A DNA stretch of 34,083 nt from Candidatus Hermodarchaeota archaeon (GCA_048885525.1 JBHLLP010000037.1:1-34083); one strand, 5' to 3'; positions 1 through 34,083 are shown, counted from the first letter of the stretch. The notes: a model not told the origin generated them from the letters alone. Translations and numbers: made by a program.

Positions 1-1185
1 CTCTGGACTTTTTCGTTGATATATAAAACTTTTATAGATTGCTTCTTCAGCCATTAACTTCCACGACTCGACATCTGCCAATGTTGTAAGTCGAATCATT
101 ATTTCAGAACATCTCAAAGCGTCACTGAATAAACCAAAATCATAATAGATTCTAGAAGCAATCGAAATTTTTTCAAACACACTTGGGCTTTTGATATTCT
201 CTTTGAACCAATCTTTTATATTTAGAGATAATATTTCTGAGCTTAATTTTACTTTAACCTGAATTAACTCTTCGACTATATTTGCTGTATTTGCATTAAT
301 AAGATAAATTTTATTTTTATTACTAAAACGAGAGATTTCATGAAGTTTTTCGGCAATTAAAATTAAATCCTTATTGATTTTAGGAAAGGATTGACTCTTA
401 CCTGATATTATTTCGTATATAATTTCACTACCAGGTTGTATTGATTCGGAATGATTTATCCAAATTAATTCTTTAAGATTCTTTATTGCTTTTATTGTCG
501 GCATTATATCAAAATCATTTATACCTGAATAACCCATTATAATTAGCGAACGTCCTTCACAGATATTATCTAATAAAATCCGCTTAAAAGGCTCAATTTG
601 ATATATACTTTTTCCTGATTTATTTAATCCAAGAGTTTTAATTGTTTTCATAAAAGAGCTTCTCGTCTCTTCCCCAGTTATAATATTTTTAGCTGAACTG
701 TGGATTTTATAGATTGCTTTAAATCCATGTTTAAAGAGTTCAGTTGGATTAGAATAATTTTCAAAATCTTCCATTGTAATAACAGGTATAATTTTGTTAG
801 AAGGAATATTTAATTTAATAAGTGCATTTTCTATTAAAAAATCAAAATTAGTAGTCATTATGAAATGCCCTTTTCGGAGACAATCCGCTAAGAAAAAATG
901 TTGAAGATTTGGTTTAGTAAATAATCCAAAATAGTCAACAATTTTAAGATCTTCGTCTAAGTTGGAATAGATTATGTTTATTAATTGTTCTAATTTCAAA
1001 TCTTCTATTTTAAGAATATTTTCAATTTCAGATTCTGCACAAAAATAATTGATTAATTCTTTTTTTATTCTATTACCATCTGGGACACTTGAAGGAGAAT
1101 CAACAGAACAACCTGCCCCTATTAAAAAAGTTAATTTTTCCTCATTTCCAAATAGGTCCTTTATTTTGAGATTGGTCTGCTTCAT
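1..1185 (-). CDS. SIR2-like (SIR2_2) domain protein, probably with C-terminal TPR/helical region; 3' end runs off the window
   Basis: Absent from the ORF track because it is truncated. Manual translation from ATG at 1185 is open to the window edge (395 codons): MKQTNLKIKDLFGNEEKLTFLIGAGCSVDSPS...MTTNFDFLIENA...IYKIHSS...LIIMGYSGINDFDI. The GAGxS, TTNFD, KxH and GYS..D motifs are those of SIR2-like domains. Confidence 0.85.
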   Translation of the reverse strand, partial: MKQTNLKIKDLFGNEEKLTFLIGAGCSVDSPSSVPDGNRIKKELINYFCAESEIENILKIEDLKLEQLINIIYSNLDEDLKIVDYFGLFTKPNLQHFFLADCLRKGHFIMTTNFDFLIENALIKLNIPSNKIIPVITMEDFENYSNPTELFKHGFKAIYKIHSSAKNIITGEETRSSFMKTIKTLGLNKSGKSIYQIEPFKRILLDNICEGRSLIIMGYSGINDFDIMPTIKAIKNLKELIWINHSESIQPGSEIIYEIISGKSQSFPKINKDLILIAEKLHEISRFSNKNKIYLINANTANIVEELIQVKVKLSSEILSLNIKDWFKENIKSPSVFEKISIASRIYYDFGLFSDALRCSEIMIRLTTLADVESWKLMAEEAIYKSFIYQRKSPE

Positions 1186-25704: not shown

Positions 25705-26964
25705 TTAATTTGTGAAAATATCTTTTAGTTCATCGGGAATTTCATCAGATTCATCCATTAAAGAGAGTGCATATACAATTTCTCCACATTTACATTGTGT
25801 TCCTTCAAAGAGATAAAATTTGAATTGATCTTTCCAATTACATATTTGAACATTACTTATTTCTGCAACCTCACCGCATACACAAAAAATTGCCATAGTT
25901 TCCGAATAATTAGGTATAATTTCTGTGAAATCTTTCTGAGCCTTACTAAATTCAGAGTTATTTAACATGTCATTAATCTTTTCAGCGTATTTATCTTTAA
26001 GCGTTGGAACGAAATAATTGATGATTCCATCTTTGCCTTTCATATCTGAAAGTGTAATAAAATTCCTCTCTACTTTCTCTTCTTTCTTTTTTCTCGAAAT
26101 TATAGGTTGTTGATATTGCTGAAGTTGCTGTGGGATAGGAAATGGTTCTACATCTGCTGGGTATTCGAAGGTATAAAAGTATTGCATTGATCCTCTTATA
26201 TTCTTTTGATTCAATAATGTTAAGTTCTCATAATCTCTACTATGGAGCATAAATTTTATTAACTGAAGAGGCACTCTTAATTCGATCAGTCTAGATCTAA
26301 TATTATCTAATAATTCACCAGCAAAATTCTTTAAAATCATAATATCTTCTCTATTTTCAGAATAAATCTGATTTTTGTTTTGCTCTTTAAACGCAAACCA
26401 TTTCTTAACAACATTGCCTTTAACTAATTGAGGCACCATACAAAAGACACATAGTATGGGAAAGAGAAAAAAAACATTTATCGGTAAAAAAGCCAAAATA
26501 AAGACAAGTACAAATAACGGTAATGTAATTAGTAATGTTAATTTTCGTAGACGTTTATCCATTGAACCTTTTATACCTTTACTAAGAGCAATTTCCTCTG
26601 CTTTAAGTTTTAATTTATTAACAATATCAATGATTCCTTTTGATTCGAAGCTCTGTTGTAAAATTCTATCCTCTTCTCTTCCACTACTAAAATTGTCTAT
26701 ATGTGTTGTAATTTGTTTTATGTACTGGTTTAAAGTGCTATCCTTAAAGATGAAATCTAAAGTTTCTTCTGAGAAATAGTCTAAAAAGCGTACTATAAAG
26801 AGTTTTTTCTCAACATCTTGAATATCTGTTGGACCCAAACCAAGCGCTTCTTGAATCATCTGACCTTGAGTTTTTCTTGATTGTTTCCTTCGCTTTCTCT
26901 TTTTTTCCTCTTTATTCTCTGAACTCTCAGATTTTATCTTTTCATTATTTTCACTGTTTTTCAT
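25705..26964 (-). CDS. Hypothetical membrane protein: basic N-terminus, central TM hairpin, C-terminal CxCG...CxCG putative Zn ribbon
   Basis: 419-aa ORF with KKRKRRKQSRK, LTLLITLPLFVLVFILAFLPINVFFLFPILCVFCMVP and FCVCGE...QCKCGE. Confidence 0.75.
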   Translation of the reverse strand: MKNSENNEKIKSESSENKEEKKRKRRKQSRKTQGQMIQEALGLGPTDIQDVEKKLFIVRFLDYFSEETLDFIFKDSTLNQYIKQITTHIDNFSSGREEDRILQQSFESKGIIDIVNKLKLKAEEIALSKGIKGSMDKRLRKLTLLITLPLFVLVFILAFLPINVFFLFPILCVFCMVPQLVKGNVVKKWFAFKEQNKNQIYSENREDIMILKNFAGELLDNIRSRLIELRVPLQLIKFMLHSRDYENLTLLNQKNIRGSMQYFYTFEYPADVEPFPIPQQLQQYQQPIISRKKKEEKVERNFITLSDMKGKDGIINYFVPTLKDKYAEKINDMLNNSEFSKAQKDFTEIIPNYSETMAIFCVCGEVAEISNVQICNWKDQFKFYLFEGTQCKCGEIVYALSLMDESDEIPDELKDIFTN

Positions 26965-27310: not shown

Positions 27311-27580
27311 GTGAAAATAACCATTAGGATATCGGTAGAAGACTCTCGCACTGGAAAGTTAATTAAGCTAGATGTTAAAAATCATCATCAGATTGAAAGA
27401 ATAGTTGATATTATCATAAAACATATGGGTATTATAAGTGCGGAACAACGTTCCTATAGTTTAGTTCTTAAAGATCAAGAGCTACCTAGCACAATAACAA
27501 TAGAGGACGCTATTCATAAATTTGGTTTACAGGAGAATGATAAGTTGGTACTTTGGGCTAAAGTTATAGGGGGTTGTTAA
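27311..27580 (+). CDS. Ubiquitin-like (beta-grasp) protein ending in Gly-Gly-Cys
   Basis: 89 aa. Beta-hairpin start (ITIRISVEDSRTGKLIKLDV), helix, YSLVLKDQEL...TI....GLQEND.LVL and C-terminal VIGGC (GGG GGT TGT TAA); next to E1, E2 and JAMM genes. Confidence 0.85.
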   Translation: MKITIRISVEDSRTGKLIKLDVKNHHQIERIVDIIIKHMGIISAEQRSYSLVLKDQELPSTITIEDAIHKFGLQENDKLVLWAKVIGGC

Positions 27581-27607
27581 GTTAGCACTCAATTTACAAT
27601 TATATAA

Positions 27608-28192
27608 TTAATCATCAATAATTATAACATCCTCATCTATTTCCTCTTTTTCCTCGATTTCTTCAGCAGTAATTTTGAGTTCTTCCTTTATATTTTCCAT
27701 GGATTTCTTTTTAAATAATTCTGCAGCCTCTAAACAAATTGCATAATTAAGTGGATCATCAGGATTTGGATTTTCTATTAAATTTTTAAGAGCTTTAATC
27801 GTTGTTTCTAAATCAGATAATCGTGACCATTTCTTCAAGACATTTAGACAAATATATCCAGTACCTAAAACCCCTGGAGCAATTTGAACTGGATGAATAT
27901 TTGGATGAAATATATTCGTTATCCAAGAAAAATCAATTCCACCAGGATAGGGAAAAGAACGATTTATTTTCAAAAAAACTTGGTGAGATCTTTGTGGCGT
28001 TAATTCTCCTTTATTCTGGATAATTCCTAATGCATTTATATTTATTGTAAATTCAATACTCGTATCGCCCTTAATAATAGAATTTTCTTCTAACACCCTT
28101 AACTTTTTAATATTATTTAGTTCATTTTCAATTCTGTCCTTCCAAATCTCAAATGGTAACTCTGGCAATTCTTTTTCAACCTCTCTCCTCAA
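27608..28192 (-). CDS. Ubiquitin-conjugating enzyme E2-like
   Basis: SFPY, ITNIFHPNI, GYICLNVLKKWS (catalytic Cys) and NPNPDDPLN..AA; acidic C-terminal tail; TTG start. Confidence 0.93.
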   Translation of the reverse strand: MRREVEKELPELPFEIWKDRIENELNNIKKLRVLEENSIIKGDTSIEFTININALGIIQNKGELTPQRSHQVFLKINRSFPYPGGIDFSWITNIFHPNIHPVQIAPGVLGTGYICLNVLKKWSRLSDLETTIKALKNLIENPNPDDPLNYAICLEAAELFKKKSMENIKEELKITAEEIEEKEEIDEDVIIIDD

Positions 28193-28275
28193 TTTTACTT
28201 TTTAAAAATTAAATCATAATTATTATTGATTTTTTTCTTTTTTATTTTTTTGATATTTTTTTATAATTATTATAT

Positions 28276-29160
28276 TCAATTTTTCTTTTCGTATGAACAT
28301 GTCCAACAATCTGGGTTCTTCAGTTTCTCAACAACCCTAAATTTATTCAATAGTCCATTATAATTTAACTGTTTACCAATCAGAGGTTTACCTATAGACG
28401 AATTCCAATTACCATGTTCTTTAAAATATTCAATACCTAAAACAAATTTCAGTACTTGTTGTGATTGTAGACCTCCAATAATAGAAGTTGTTGTTATAAT
28501 TGTTGCTATCTTCGCAATTGTTTCACCATTTTCACTCTGAATTTCTTCACCTGTACATGAAAATTTTTTCCACATTAAATCTAAATCAGCATTGGATATA
28601 CTGCATTGTAAACAAGCTGCATCTTTTTCTTTAGAATAAACTGCTTGAACACTACCAAAAAATTCTTCAATTCCAGAATCCACAAAAGGAACTTGGTAAT
28701 AGTAAGCATAATTATTTGCTTGTAATCTAGCCTCAACATTGTCAAGACATGAACATATGACATCAGATTTTTGATACAGAGTTTTATCAATATCATTTAA
28801 ATCCTTTTTAATAGCTACAATTTCTGTATCAGGATTTAATTCTTCACAGGCATTTTTTACTACATCCACTTTATAATCTTTATTTTGAGCACTTTGGCTA
28901 TTAAATAACACACAGCGATTTAAATTTGAAATATTTATGAAATCATAGTCAACTAATATTAATTTTCCAATACCAGTTAACACCAAATTCTTCACAACCT
29001 CATTCCCAGTAGCACCTACACCGATAACCATAACTGTTGCGTTTGAAATTTTATTTTGATCCCAACCCTTAATACGTTTTTGACGATCAAATTTATCCGA
29101 GTCTATTGACTCAAAACCATAGACTTTATAATCCTTATTTTTTTGTTCTTTACTTGGCAT
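28276..29160 (-). CDS. Ubiquitin-activating enzyme E1-like (ThiF family adenylyltransferase)
   Basis: FDRQ, VIGVGATG, VDYD.I.ISNLNR, K, CLDNVEAR, CLQC, putative catalytic FSCT and CWTC. Confidence 0.92.
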   Translation of the reverse strand: MPSKEQKNKDYKVYGFESIDSDKFDRQKRIKGWDQNKISNATVMVIGVGATGNEVVKNLVLTGIGKLILVDYDFINISNLNRCVLFNSQSAQNKDYKVDVVKNACEELNPDTEIVAIKKDLNDIDKTLYQKSDVICSCLDNVEARLQANNYAYYYQVPFVDSGIEEFFGSVQAVYSKEKDAACLQCSISNADLDLMWKKFSCTGEEIQSENGETIAKIATIITTTSIIGGLQSQQVLKFVLGIEYFKEHGNWNSSIGKPLIGKQLNYNGLLNKFRVVEKLKNPDCWTCSYEKKN

Positions 29161-29178
29161 CTATAAGATTTATTAAAT

Positions 29179-29676
29179 TCAATTTATATTTATATTAAGA
29201 ATCGCATAACTAACTTCTTTATAACCCTTTTCTGAACTTTTGTCTAATGTAAAAAATTGAAAGTTATCATTTACGGGATCAACAACTAAAGCTACTTGGT
29301 ATGATTCAGGGAAGAAAAATTCTTGAGTTTTTACATCCGTTGGAGATAGAAAACATCCAAAGCCTGGATGACTGTGCCACCACCCAACAACTCTTAAACT
29401 ATCATCTTCTCTTTTTCTTTTTAATCTTTGAAATTTTTTTTCATATTTACCCGCAGTTCCCTCTATTTGAGATGTTGAATATTTATCACTATGGATTGCG
29501 CCTATAAGGAAAAGAAGTTCTTTAATTCTAATATATATTTTTTCATTCCATTTCAAGATATTACCTATTAGGTATCCAAAAATTTCATTTTGAATATTCT
29601 TGCATAATAATTTAATTTTAACTAAAACATCTTGATTAACATATATAGGAAATATATAATTTTTTTCTAATGTCAT
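29179..29676 (-). CDS. JAMM/MPN+ metalloprotease (Rpn11/AMSH-like deubiquitinase or Ubl-processing protease)
   Basis: EIFGYLIG (catalytic Glu), [19 protein letters not shown] (HxH-x7-S-x2-D) and ALVVDP. Confidence 0.93.
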
Positions 29677-29729
29677 AATAATTTTTTCTTCTTAATTCCT
29701 TTTAAAGAATTAATTTTAAAATTTTCCCA

Positions 29730-30608
29730 TTAACCTTTTTTCATAATCGCATTCTCTAATATCTTCTTGATTATTTGTTCAATATTCCCTCTAGCAGCTT
29801 CTTGAATGGCAGAAAATCCAAACGTTTGTAACCCACCAAATGATTCACTAATTTTCTCAGTGTCAAATGCAGAATTTATAGAATCTTGAAAATTTGCAAA
29901 AATATAAAATATTTTATTTTTTATTCTTTCCTTTAGATGAGAATATAAATTCTTTGTTCGGCTTAAATTGTCTGCCCCTGAGTTTGTAACCATACAAATT
30001 ATGTCTACAGTATCAATAAGGGATTTATATTTAGTGATATTATCTATTAAATCTTTGAAATTGATTTCTATTAACACAAACTCATTAATTCCTTTTATAT
30101 CAGATAGTTTAATAGTTTTTTTAACAAGTTCAGTCATATCGTCATCTAATTCTAATATAGTCTCTCCTGGAAATAAATTCATAATTGTACTTTTTCCAAC
30201 CCCATCTTCACCAATCAATAGGATTTTAGGAGTAAGAACTAAGTGTTTTTCAATAAATTGGTCGAACATTTCATATTTTTCATTTTCACCTATCCCTTTT
30301 TCTAATCCCTTTATAAATATTTTGAAATATTCCTCTTTTAATAGTTTCAATTTAACTCTTGCTTCTTCTTCAAGATCATGACTATCTGTAGTAATAATAA
30401 ATACATAATCGTGATTACCATAATCATAAATAAAATTAAAATTCTCAAAATTTAATGAACTTATATTTCCTCCACCAATCTTTTTGCTTACACGAGTTAT
30501 AAGAGTTAAAAAGCTTATGATATCTTTACTTGAATTGGTGGAACCAAAAATTGATTTTGAATAGCGTACTACCCCATCTGTTGTAATAATATAAATATTG
30601 GATATCAT
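29730..30608 (-). CDS. Longin-like domain fused to an atypical small GTPase (Arf/Rab-like), paralog A
   Basis: N-terminal MISNIYIITTDGVVRYSK...IGGGNISSLNF longin-like pattern; KILLIGEDGVGKSTI P-loop; FANFQD (G4-like); FSAI (G5-like). Confidence 0.8.
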   Translation of the reverse strand: MISNIYIITTDGVVRYSKSIFGSTNSSKDIISFLTLITRVSKKIGGGNISSLNFENFNFIYDYGNHDYVFIITTDSHDLEEEARVKLKLLKEEYFKIFIKGLEKGIGENEKYEMFDQFIEKHLVLTPKILLIGEDGVGKSTIMNLFPGETILELDDDMTELVKKTIKLSDIKGINEFVLIEINFKDLIDNITKYKSLIDTVDIICMVTNSGADNLSRTKNLYSHLKERIKNKIFYIFANFQDSINSAFDTEKISESFGGLQTFGFSAIQEAARGNIEQIIKKILENAIMKKG

Positions 30609-30744
30609 AGCAGAATTCTAATTTTCTTAACCACTAAAGAAAATCCTTTTTCAACTTTAATTTTTTATCTGTTTTTTTATAAATATATGTAATATATACT
30701 CTTAAACAATCGATATCTAATCTTTTTCTCCTTTAATCTATAAT

Positions 30745-31644
30745 TTATTTTACTTGTTTGCTTTCTATTTTTTCTACAATTGAAATTCTTACTATTTCAC
30801 TAATAATCTCAAAAATCCTTTCCTTGGCTTCCTTTTTAATTGCACAGAAACCATATGTTTGAATACCAAATAATTCTTGTATTTTTTCTGGTTCATAAGA
30901 TGTATTTTGTAAATCCTGAAAATTTGCAATAACATAAAAGTCTGCTTTCTTGACTTTTTTCTCTAATTGTGAAAAGAGTCTTTGAGTTCTACCTAAATTG
31001 CTTGCCCCAGAGTTAGTGACAATGCAAATTATATCGACTGAATCTAATAATGGTCGATAAATTTTTGCATTTTTAATGAGATCTTCTAAATCAAGTTCTC
31101 GTAATATTACTTCATTTATTCTTTTAAAATTTGTTAACGGGACTGTTTTCTGTATGATTTCGTTTAAATCTTCATCAAGCTCTAGAACAGTGTCCCCTTC
31201 AAATAAGTTGATAATAGTCGTTTTCCCGACACCTAGCTCGCCTACCAATAATATTTTCGGGGGTATGAAAATTCTGTTTTCTGTGAATTCATCAAATACT
31301 TCAAATCTTCCTGTTTCACATTTGAAATCTTTTAAGTCATCATAAAATCGTTTGATAAACTCATTTTTTAATAATTCTAACTTATCTTGTGCCTCTTCTT
31401 CAGGGTCATCAATATCTGTAACAATAATAAACATACATAGCTTTTCATCATCATAAGTATATATAAAATTGAAATTTCTGAAGTTTAATGATCTTATTTC
31501 TCCTCCACCAATTTCTTTTGCAATACTACTAATTGCTGTAAGGAATCCGCCCACTAAATCGTAATCCATGTTATCACTTCCAATAAATGTCCTTGAATAA
31601 CAGAGTACACCATTAGCCATTATTATAAGTATTTTAGATATCAT
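30745..31644 (-). CDS. Longin-like domain fused to an atypical small GTPase, paralog B
   Basis: MISKILIIMANGVLCYS...DLVGGFLTAISSIAKEIGGGEIRSLNF; KILLVGELGVGKTTI; IANFQD; FCAI; colinear with paralog A. Confidence 0.82.
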   Translation of the reverse strand: MISKILIIMANGVLCYSRTFIGSDNMDYDLVGGFLTAISSIAKEIGGGEIRSLNFRNFNFIYTYDDEKLCMFIIVTDIDDPEEEAQDKLELLKNEFIKRFYDDLKDFKCETGRFEVFDEFTENRIFIPPKILLVGELGVGKTTIINLFEGDTVLELDEDLNEIIQKTVPLTNFKRINEVILRELDLEDLIKNAKIYRPLLDSVDIICIVTNSGASNLGRTQRLFSQLEKKVKKADFYVIANFQDLQNTSYEPEKIQELFGIQTYGFCAIKKEAKERIFEIISEIVRISIVEKIESKQVK

Positions 31645-33419: not shown

Positions 33420-33797
33420 ATGGATGCCACAGAATTTATTAAAAAGCTGAATGAAGTTCAAGAACTAATGAGACAAGAAAATTACAAACAGGCAATTGCT
33501 TTAATTGAAAAACTGAAAGAATTAGAAAAAAAGGGCAACTTTGATTATAATCTTACTCACAGATTATACCAATTAGATTCAAATTGTCGTTCCCTTAATA
33601 ATCAACAAATTCTCTTAAAAATAATGAAGGATCTTTCTAGCGAGAATGATCACATTAGTTTTTACGAATTGAATAAAATTTTAAAGAAAAATCATGAGCT
33701 AGACCTTAACGAACATATTTTAAAAAGAGAAATTGAAATTCTAATATTAAGAAATCTTTTAACTTGTAGAATAGATGGAGATACACTCATTTTTTAA
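33420..33797 (+). CDS. Hypothetical protein, helical N-terminus plus winged-helix (PCI-like) C-terminus
   Basis: 125 aa; TPR-like helical hairpin, then ISFYEL...REIEILILRNLLTCRIDGDTLIF, resembling a PCI/winged-helix end. Confidence 0.65.
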   Translation: MDATEFIKKLNEVQELMRQENYKQAIALIEKLKELEKKGNFDYNLTHRLYQLDSNCRSLNNQQILLKIMKDLSSENDHISFYELNKILKKNHELDLNEHILKREIEILILRNLLTCRIDGDTLIF

Positions 33798-34083
33798 TTT
33801 TGTTCCTCTATCTCTGCAAGAAACAGGTCTACAATTGCTAACCATTTGTTTTTTGATTCAAAATCACTCATAATTTTAGTTGTTAATTCTTTTCCTCTCT
33901 TAAGATTTTGAACTGCTAATTCAAAATTTTCAAGTGCCGTATAGCAAATTCCTAATTTAATATAAGTCTGGTAGATAAACCAATCATTAGTATCAATTGC
34001 TATAGCGTTTTGGAATTCTTCTATGGCTTTTTCATACTCTTTAAAAGTGATTAAGATTTCTCCGTATGTATCGTGATAAATTC
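33794..34083 (-). CDS. TPR-containing protein, C-terminal part (5' end outside the window)
   Basis: Manual translation ...YHDTYGEILITFKEYEKAIEEFQNAIAID...YIKLGICYTALENFELAVQNL...EEQN*. The stop overlaps the stop of the convergent gene. Confidence 0.8.
   Translation of the reverse strand, partial: IYHDTYGEILITFKEYEKAIEEFQNAIAIDTNDWFIYQTYIKLGICYTALENFELAVQNLKRGKELTTKIMSDFESKNKWLAIVDLFLAEIEEQN

Follow-up and report, generated by a model that had tools for sequence, protein, structure and literature searches.

A ubiquitin-like conjugation module with longin-pseudoGTPases and a co-occurring RING-like finger family in Lokiarchaeia

Locus and gene content

A gene module for a ubiquitin-like modifier (Ubl) and its conjugation was analysed in an archaeal contig of 34 083 nucleotides (Candidatus Hermodarchaeota archaeon, GCA_048885525.1, JBHLLP010000037.1). 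This whole stretch is called the window below; it is the entire contig C37 of a 3.58-Mb genome (label G000, 29% GC, 99% complete). Relatives of this genome carry the names Promethearchaeota or Lokiarchaeota, and the genome was placed in Lokiarchaeia. Candidatus Sigynarchaeum springense is a member of the sister family that also carries the module. Five minus-strand genes, in the order pseudoGTPase B, pseudoGTPase A, JAMM, E1 and E2, converge on a plus-strand Ubl gene (Table 1). With longin-pseudoGTPase abbreviated to pG, the full cassette is written pG>JAMM>E1>E2><Ubl. The six open reading frames (ORFs) of the preliminary description, with their strands and their gaps of 136, 53, 18, 83 and 27 nt, were all reproduced. 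As it had also stated, no RING, HECT or ESCRT gene was matched among the window ORFs scanned for families, and the catalytic motifs that it had called intact (HPN..Cys in E2, the catalytic Cys and both CxxC in E1, HxH..S..D in JAMM) proved to be conserved in about 30 orthologues.

Table 1. Coordinates of the module in the window
Feature	Position	Strand	Remarks
Ubl	27311..27580	+	pro-form ending GG-C; own family
E2	27608..28192	-	catalytic Cys115, HPN; probable start TTG 28168; non-canonical archaeal E2 group
E2 C-terminal tail DEDVIIIDD	27611..27637	-	acidic-hydrophobic-acidic, like a SUMO-interacting motif (SIM-like)
E1, 294 aa	28276..29160	-	adenylation domain, two CxxC, catalytic Cys in FSCTG
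JAMM/Rpn11-like metalloprotease	29179..29676	-	motif HxH..S..D intact
Longin-pseudoGTPase A	29730..30608	-	P-loop kept; G2, G3 lost; G4 NFQD
Longin-pseudoGTPase B	30745..31644	-	50% identical paralogue of A; switch I an acidic ILELDD-type strand

Modifier and core enzymes

Pfam matches were obtained for E2 (UQ_con, 1e-11), E1 (ThiF, 8e-49) and JAMM (JAB, 2e-12). The Ubl gave only sub-threshold matches to beta-grasp families (RA, Rad60-SLD), and one orthologue matched PF00240 at 0.0016. Conservation of the Ubl is high, with a mean column identity of 77%. Its GG is invariant among orthologues and is followed by 0-11 residues; since the window's Ubl itself ends in GG-C, maturation by the JAMM is expected. 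Both maturation of the pro-Ubl and deconjugation are likely roles for this enzyme by analogy with the Rpn11 of Caldiarchaeum, which was shown to mature a pro-Ubl (PMC5654768). In the Ubl start region (window 27311-27325), the orthologues have ATG where the window has ATT (27323), and the start is GTG 27311 or a non-standard codon. For E2, the most likely start is TTG 28168, giving 186 aa as in the orthologues and an E1-E2 gap of 107 nt.

The E1 stops directly past the second CxxC and so has no C-terminal UBL/UFD domain; complete orthologues of the family end within about 15 residues of the same point, and canonical E1s in the comparison set measured 330-527 aa. The E1s of archaeal Clusters I and II hold E2 through their UBL domain, and UBL-less 'Cluster III' E1s were described in the supplement of the same paper (PMC5654768). 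The acidic-hydrophobic-acidic tail of the E2 was found in 32 of 34 orthologues, compared with 0 of 16 canonical Asgard E2s and 7 of 2663 ORFs of the genome. We take this tail to resemble a SUMO-interacting motif.

Rearranged relatives of the core proteins were also recorded. At L130:2-1294 a Ubl of the C37 family is fused into a 431-aa protein, with GG changed to GA. In the Sigynarchaeum family (L116, L117), proteins of 790-980 aa carry two E1-like domains in tandem, which recalls the layout of eukaryotic UBA1 with its two fused domains. A 352-aa protein (P0241) contains two tandem E2 domains of the C37 clade, both apparently without the catalytic Cys.

Longin-pseudoGTPases

Both long ORFs at the head of the minus-strand genes gave weak Pfam matches to Ras/Arf/Roc and a weak longin match. 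The AlphaFold model of 30745-31644 matched small-GTPase folds with Z 16.7 (root-mean-square deviation, rmsd, 2.8; 151 aligned) and, over residues 1-129, the Vamp7 longin domain with Z 13.6. A sequence search of the PDB with pG returned nothing under E 0.09. The G1 P-loop and the G-domain fold of active Ras-superfamily GTPases are present; G2 Thr, G3 DxxG and G4 Lys are absent from both window proteins. The same loss was seen throughout the family: DxxG was found in 0 of 79 G domains and G4 Lys in none, G1 was further decayed in 10, and G4 read NFQD in 76 of the 79 and NMQD in the Sigynarchaeum family. Canonical paralogues on contigs C5 and C24 of the same genome retain WDFAGQ and NKQD. Because G2, G3 and G4 Lys are missing in every orthologue, these proteins are pseudoGTPases and not trafficking switches; an active GTPase was rejected on the motif loss, and the proteins are probably inactive. 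With Asgard longin/Roadblock-GTPase fusions (Rag/Arf-like; PMC4917890, bioRxiv 10.1101/2020.10.19.343400) they share a longin and a Ras-like G domain, and they differ from these in lacking the three motifs in all members and in co-occurring with the Ubl.

It had been proposed that the longin-GTPases are active switches under the control of Ubl tagging, in a primordial trafficking pathway with relevance to eukaryogenesis. One part of this proposal was borne out, as the longin-G-domain genes are truly linked to the Ubl by synteny, co-occurrence and co-duplication, and the folds are indeed longin and Ras-like. The switches themselves found no support. Besides the degenerate G domains, many duplicated cassettes have lost the longin domain, the module is horizontally exchanged and was found in two Loki families only, and its E2 lies off the Asgard/eukaryote side of the tree (see below). 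Moreover, longin-GTPase fusions on their own are no sign of trafficking (PMC4917890). A pathway of active switches is thus considered very unlikely.

A complex of the G domain with the Ubl was predicted with a score of 0.46 against 0.00 for the best control, the runs agreeing in 100% of contacts and the partner having a predicted local distance difference test (pLDDT) value of at least 80; in the benchmark, the mark was reached by 58 of 80 solved and 2 of 110 mismatched pairs, and at scores of 0.60 or lower by 7 of the 80 solved pairs and both mismatches. This prediction lends weak support and may echo complexes of Ras with Ras-binding domains (RBDs). Longin-pseudoGTPase B is a candidate Ubl reader or target. 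Longer fusions of 870-880 aa, in which longin, pseudoGTPase, alpha-solenoid and nitrilase follow one another, were found at L047:5731-8373 and some 12 further loci; in the usual arrangement an intact Rab-like GTPase precedes them and JAMM follows directly. An MIT domain in pG fusions, a possible link to ESCRT-III, gave only a sub-threshold match (E 0.007).

Synteny and co-occurrence

About 30 genomes of the genus share the order pG>JAMM>E1>E2><Ubl. In Sigynarchaeum-family genomes pG>JAMM>E1 is kept, and Ubl and E2 are located elsewhere. The pG genes are thus syntenic with the Ubl module in related genomes, the outcome of the neighbourhood-conservation check that had been proposed. Ubl, E2 and pG were present in the identical 14 of 151 genomes of the phylum, and all three were absent from the same 4 of 36 genomes of the genus, three of which are 95-100% complete. 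Around 50 full-length Ubl loci, pG was found in 45, a RING-like finger gene (C4C4, within 5 kb) in 39 and E2 in 38. Fourteen Ubl loci without E2 have an adjoining pG, and their extra Ubl paralogues are without E1, E2 and JAMM. The pG beside such paralogues has lost the longin domain and gained an alpha-solenoid, and its G1 is often further decayed. The phylum-wide survey did not find the module in other Asgard classes, only in two Loki families; it was not found in the single-contig genomes G044 and G055.

Duplicated mini-cassettes of the order wHTH-TPR > Ubl >< pG-solenoid < PLDc_N < RING (wHTH, winged helix) were observed at L119-L128 and L233-L251, with up to 3 per genome; their Ubl belongs to a diverged subtype that mostly ends at GG.

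RING-like finger family

The preliminary description had taken the module to be without an E3. This was not supported: in most relatives the Ubl has a member of a RING-fold family as its neighbour, and across whole genomes this family goes with the module; the window itself has no adjacent copy. Frequent orders are RING > PLDc_N > Ubl and RING > PLDc_N > pG > JAMM > E1 > E2. The finger was modelled with a pLDDT of 91 and has the eight-ligand cross-brace of the RING fold. Its structural matches were almost only RING/U-box proteins, the top ones being modest (Z 5-6; best Z 6.1, rmsd 3.4, 52 aligned; Foldseek E 0.008; Atlas lead 0.85).

Sixteen copies are spread over about 14 contigs of the C37 genome. 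The family is present in every module-positive genome, with 1-18 copies each, and was not found in the four module-negative genomes of the genus, in 14 genomes of family f2 or in other classes. There is one strong exception to this match, G154, in which RING > PLDc_N > JAMM > E1 is cut by the contig end. On a tree of RpoA1, gain or loss of the module was accompanied by that of the finger family in all informative independent genome pairs (7 of 7; sign test, p 0.016). The finger stands at the end of these proteins, and their N-termini are sensor-like: a beta-helix ectodomain with a transmembrane (TM) segment, multi-TM regions, a TPR scaffold, PNPOx and AMP-binding C. With the C4C4 fingers, the module is probably not E3-less. 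A membrane RING protein of G154 (L291:1661-2674) has an acidic-hydrophobic end, DEEVIID, like the E2 tail.

Alternatively, the core could work without an E3 in a SUMO-like manner. Specificity would then be given by the SIM-like tail of E2 or by the pseudoGTPase, and the fingers would be substrates or Ubl readers. Conservation of the tail agrees with this, as do the hydrophobic tails of related non-Asgard E2s, often with no nearby RING, the acidic hydrophobic strand at switch I of pG, and loop 7 of E2, which reads WSRL without the usual Pro. However, human UBE2C likewise has no loop-7 Pro in the alignment, yet it functions with the APC11 RING. Loop 4 of E2 (FPYP) is invariant among orthologues, and a family with a RING fold has expanded in step with the module. 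An E3-independent core is accordingly regarded as improbable.

Phylogeny and the other E1/E2 sets of the genome

Family searches of the C37 genome gave three E2s, four Pfam RINGs and, with the module, three E1/E2 sets. The set at C47:7301-13906 is a canonical-type Loki cluster with Ubls ending in AG (7301, 9591; another on C35), an E1 of 419 aa, an E2 and a JAMM; it also holds two membrane proteins, one of 394 aa with a RING match and one of 264 aa in which a Ubl-like domain forms the C terminus. At C16:59131-62555 there is a third E1 (527 aa) with an E2 (172 aa) that is sister to the C47 type, and no adjacent Ubl. The window's Ubl is essentially unrelated in sequence to the C47 and C35 Ubls (about 0 bits against those of C47).

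Conclusions on E2 rest on a careful tree of 48 rows chosen by the authors, from which the Caldiarchaeum E2 and identified bacterial E2s were absent. In this tree C37-type E2s (98/94) group with non-Asgard archaeal E2s and are separated by a long branch (100/99) from Asgard-canonical, C47/C16 and eukaryotic E2s. Named taxa on the C37 side are Desulfurococcales, Thermofilaceae, Bathyarchaeia, Thermoplasmata and Theionarchaea, most rows being unnamed. For E1, the sister sequence is a 284-aa Desulfurococcales enzyme encoded in an E1-Ubl-E2-JAMM locus (97/91, long branch).

A relocated orthologue of the canonical Asgard ubiquitin (Ub)-ESCRT system was considered at this point. The nearest E2 matches within the class do sit in Helarchaeal Ub-ESCRT clusters, and separate Ub and ESCRT regions in Loki were reported by Hatano et al. 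(PMC9192718). However, E2 profiles from the Helarchaeal clusters favoured the C47 and C16 E2s (66 and 61 bits) over the C37 E2 (37.5 bits), the canonical-type cluster of this genome is that on C47, and the approximately unbiased (AU) test rejected C37 and ESCRT-cluster E2s as one clade (p 0.0012). Orthology was rejected on the profile scores and the AU test, and this origin is judged extremely improbable. With its E2 outside the Asgard Ub-ESCRT clade and its E1 sister to a Desulfurococcales enzyme, the module is a separate system; the suggestion of a distinct Ubl pathway was in this respect upheld. The E2s related to that of the window form a broad, mostly unnamed archaeal group (L168 of Desulfurococcales, L164, L165, L167, L172; P0250, P0257, P0285) with Ubl>E2 pairs, Ubl-E2 fusions and minimal-E1 operons, and many of its members end in a hydrophobic tail.

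Comparison with known systems

The module was compared with archaeal Clusters I and II (Caldiarchaeum subterraneum, PMC5654768; Asgard Ub-ESCRT, PMC9192718, bioRxiv 10.1101/2023.07.25.550441). Common to both are a pro-Ubl with GG and a tail, an Rpn11-like JAMM, a Cys-dependent E1, a eukaryote-like E2 (HPN..C) and a RING-type partner. In contrast to these clusters, the C37 E1 is without the C-terminal UBL domain, the E2 falls outside the canonical clade, and the module is patchy and mobile, with a pseudoGTPase partner and no ESCRT or UEV link. The linked RINGs form an expanded multi-domain family, where Clusters I and II have one small RING protein. In the related loci examined, no gene next to the module was recognised as ESCRT or UEV-Vps23, in contrast to the Helarchaeal and Jordarchaeal clusters (L058-L062, L077-L088).

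Archaeal Cluster III (supplement of PMC5654768) likewise has an E1 without a UBL domain. That cluster was defined on trees with bacterial E2s; the named relatives of the C37 E2 are archaeal, in a tree with no identified bacterial E2. The unnamed E1-Ubl-E2-JAMM loci of Desulfurococcales, Thermoplasmata and Theionarchaea are alike in that C37 E1 and E2 group with such non-Asgard archaeal enzymes; the pseudoGTPase and the C4C4 finger family were found in none of the few outside loci inspected. From SAMP/Urm1, with a ThiS/MoaD-type modifier and E1 only, the module differs in that its Ubl has a cognate E2 and matches ubiquitin/SUMO-type Pfam families, not ThiS. A MoeB-like E1 is encoded separately in the C37 genome, which also has short ORFs that end in GG and are likely of the ThiS/MoaD type.

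Mobility and the possibility of a defence role

Across the RpoA1 tree, which covers 29 genomes, 10 changes of state were counted for the module. The tree of E1 and E2 separates the two families but conflicts with RpoA1 inside the family, where the AU test rejected five RpoA1 groups (p 8e-4 to 3e-71), a conflict to which hidden paralogy could contribute. Given this conflict and the patchy presence, the module is regarded as accessory.

Mobile, patchy operons of E1, E2, protease and Ubl are also known from the bacterial Bil/Bub and CBASS E1-E2-JAB systems. The same biochemistry might serve defence or conflict: receptor-RINGs would sense viral or competitor molecules and Ubl tagging would trigger the response, as in Bil/CBASS-type systems. 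Patchiness, the conflict between the trees, and cassettes that duplicate and lose parts are in line with such a purpose, and the nitrilase domain fused to some pGs has a DRT-nitrilase match in PADLOC. On the other hand, PADLOC gave no match for the Ubl or the UQ_con-type E2, and its matches for E1 and JAMM were generic CBASS domains; no defence match was obtained for 9 of 10 neighbouring proteins, and the neighbours of the module in the window are housekeeping or metabolic genes. The strong conservation of the Ubl and a core that is single-copy in most genomes likewise speak against it. Bub works through oxyester intermediates with an E1 without catalytic Cys (bioRxiv 10.1101/2024.11.21.623953), whereas E2 Cys115 and the E1 Cys are invariant in the C37 module. 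A defence purpose is held to be possible but unlikely.

Proposed mechanism and significance

On balance, we favour an accessory, horizontally exchanged Ubl signalling system of two Lokiarchaeia families, separate from the two other E1/E2 sets of the genome and served by dispersed sensor-E3s. It is underpinned by gene content, motifs, trees, co-occurrence and folds. The JAMM would trim the pro-Ubl to GG, the minimal E1 would adenylate it and form a thioester, and E2 would take the Ubl over; maturation, activation and transthiolation are modelled here on known ubiquitin chemistry. The SIM-like tail of E2 may bind the Ubl and stand in for the missing UBL domain of E1. Specificity would be provided in trans by the dedicated C4C4 RING-fold proteins acting as E3s, in the form of membrane receptors, TPR scaffolds and proteins with ligand-binding domains. 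The longin-pseudoGTPase would be a non-hydrolysing adaptor that binds or receives the Ubl, and the linked winged-helix-TPR protein a possible output. The roles given to the fingers, pG, E2 tail and wHTH-TPR protein are ones that we infer from this analysis only.

Several points weigh against this signalling system. Co-occurrence of fingers and module is partly plain linkage, because one RING copy usually lies inside the cassette; linkage does not, however, account for contrasts such as that between the sister genomes G025 (17 finger copies) and G018 (none). Unlike canonical RINGs, the finger has W in place of P after ligand 7 and is without the linchpin Arg, and its match to the one Helarchaeal RING tested was weak (hhalign, 48%). 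Some RING folds are not E3s, and p44, cellulose synthase and GATOR2 are among the structural matches of the finger. Cross-use is possible, since further RINGs and two further E2s are encoded in the genome. Absence was called from metagenome-assembled genomes.

A bolder proposal is possible, although we would not call it probable. Starting from a minimal archaeal Ubl system acquired by horizontal transfer, Loki may have arrived independently at a eukaryote-like hierarchy, with one E1, one E2 and at most 18 receptor- or scaffold-fused RING E3s, including single- and multi-pass membrane receptor-ligases. A dead GTPase would act as Ubl reader through a Ras-RBD-like contact, and the SIM-like motif of E2 itself would replace the UBL domain of E1.

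The expansion of E3s and their fusion to other domains are generally seen as developments of eukaryotes. Only small RING proteins have been known in archaea (PMC5654768). If the signalling system is as proposed, a prokaryotic Ubl system has its own expanded, sensor-fused RING family, and a eukaryote-style layout can arise in parallel. Five small soluble proteins and a 60-residue finger would offer a compact set for how a UBL-less E1 recruits E2 and how E3 specificity arises. Furthermore, if 'ubiquitin' and 'small GTPase' genes of Loki are counted among the ancestral signatures of eukaryotes, dead GTPases and a system that is mobile and not orthologous would be mixed in. Earlier work already covers longin-GTPase fusions (PMC4917890), a discrete Ub region in Loki (PMC9192718) and archaeal clusters of Ubl, E1, E2 and JAMM. 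No description was found of the module, its E2 clade in Loki, Asgard pseudoGTPases or the co-varying RING family in a literature search that most subscription papers and all figures lay outside; the core cluster may already be drawn in the cluster maps of PMC5654768 or PMC9192718.

Neighbouring genes and cassette flanks

A promoter scan of the window gave chance-level results only; the scan models sigma-70 sites and is inapplicable to archaea. In close relatives the full cassette occupies the same site, between NifU and a 419-aa gene. The latter (window 25705-26964) encodes a two-TM protein with no Pfam match and adjoins the Ubl in close relatives only. The ORF at window 1-1185, 26 kb from the module and truncated at the contig start, has a SIR2_2 domain and is a possible defence gene. 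At the other end (window 33794-34083), a wHTH-TPR paralogue is cut by the contig end and only its 3' end is present; it shares about 50-58% identity with those linked to the cassette. On another contig of the genome (C27:1-3557; L286), the cassette flanks occur without Ubl, E2, E1 or JAMM, in the order RING-like > PLDc_N >< pseudoGTPase < wHTH-TPR (633 aa), and the same core-less cassette was also found in G015 (L137).

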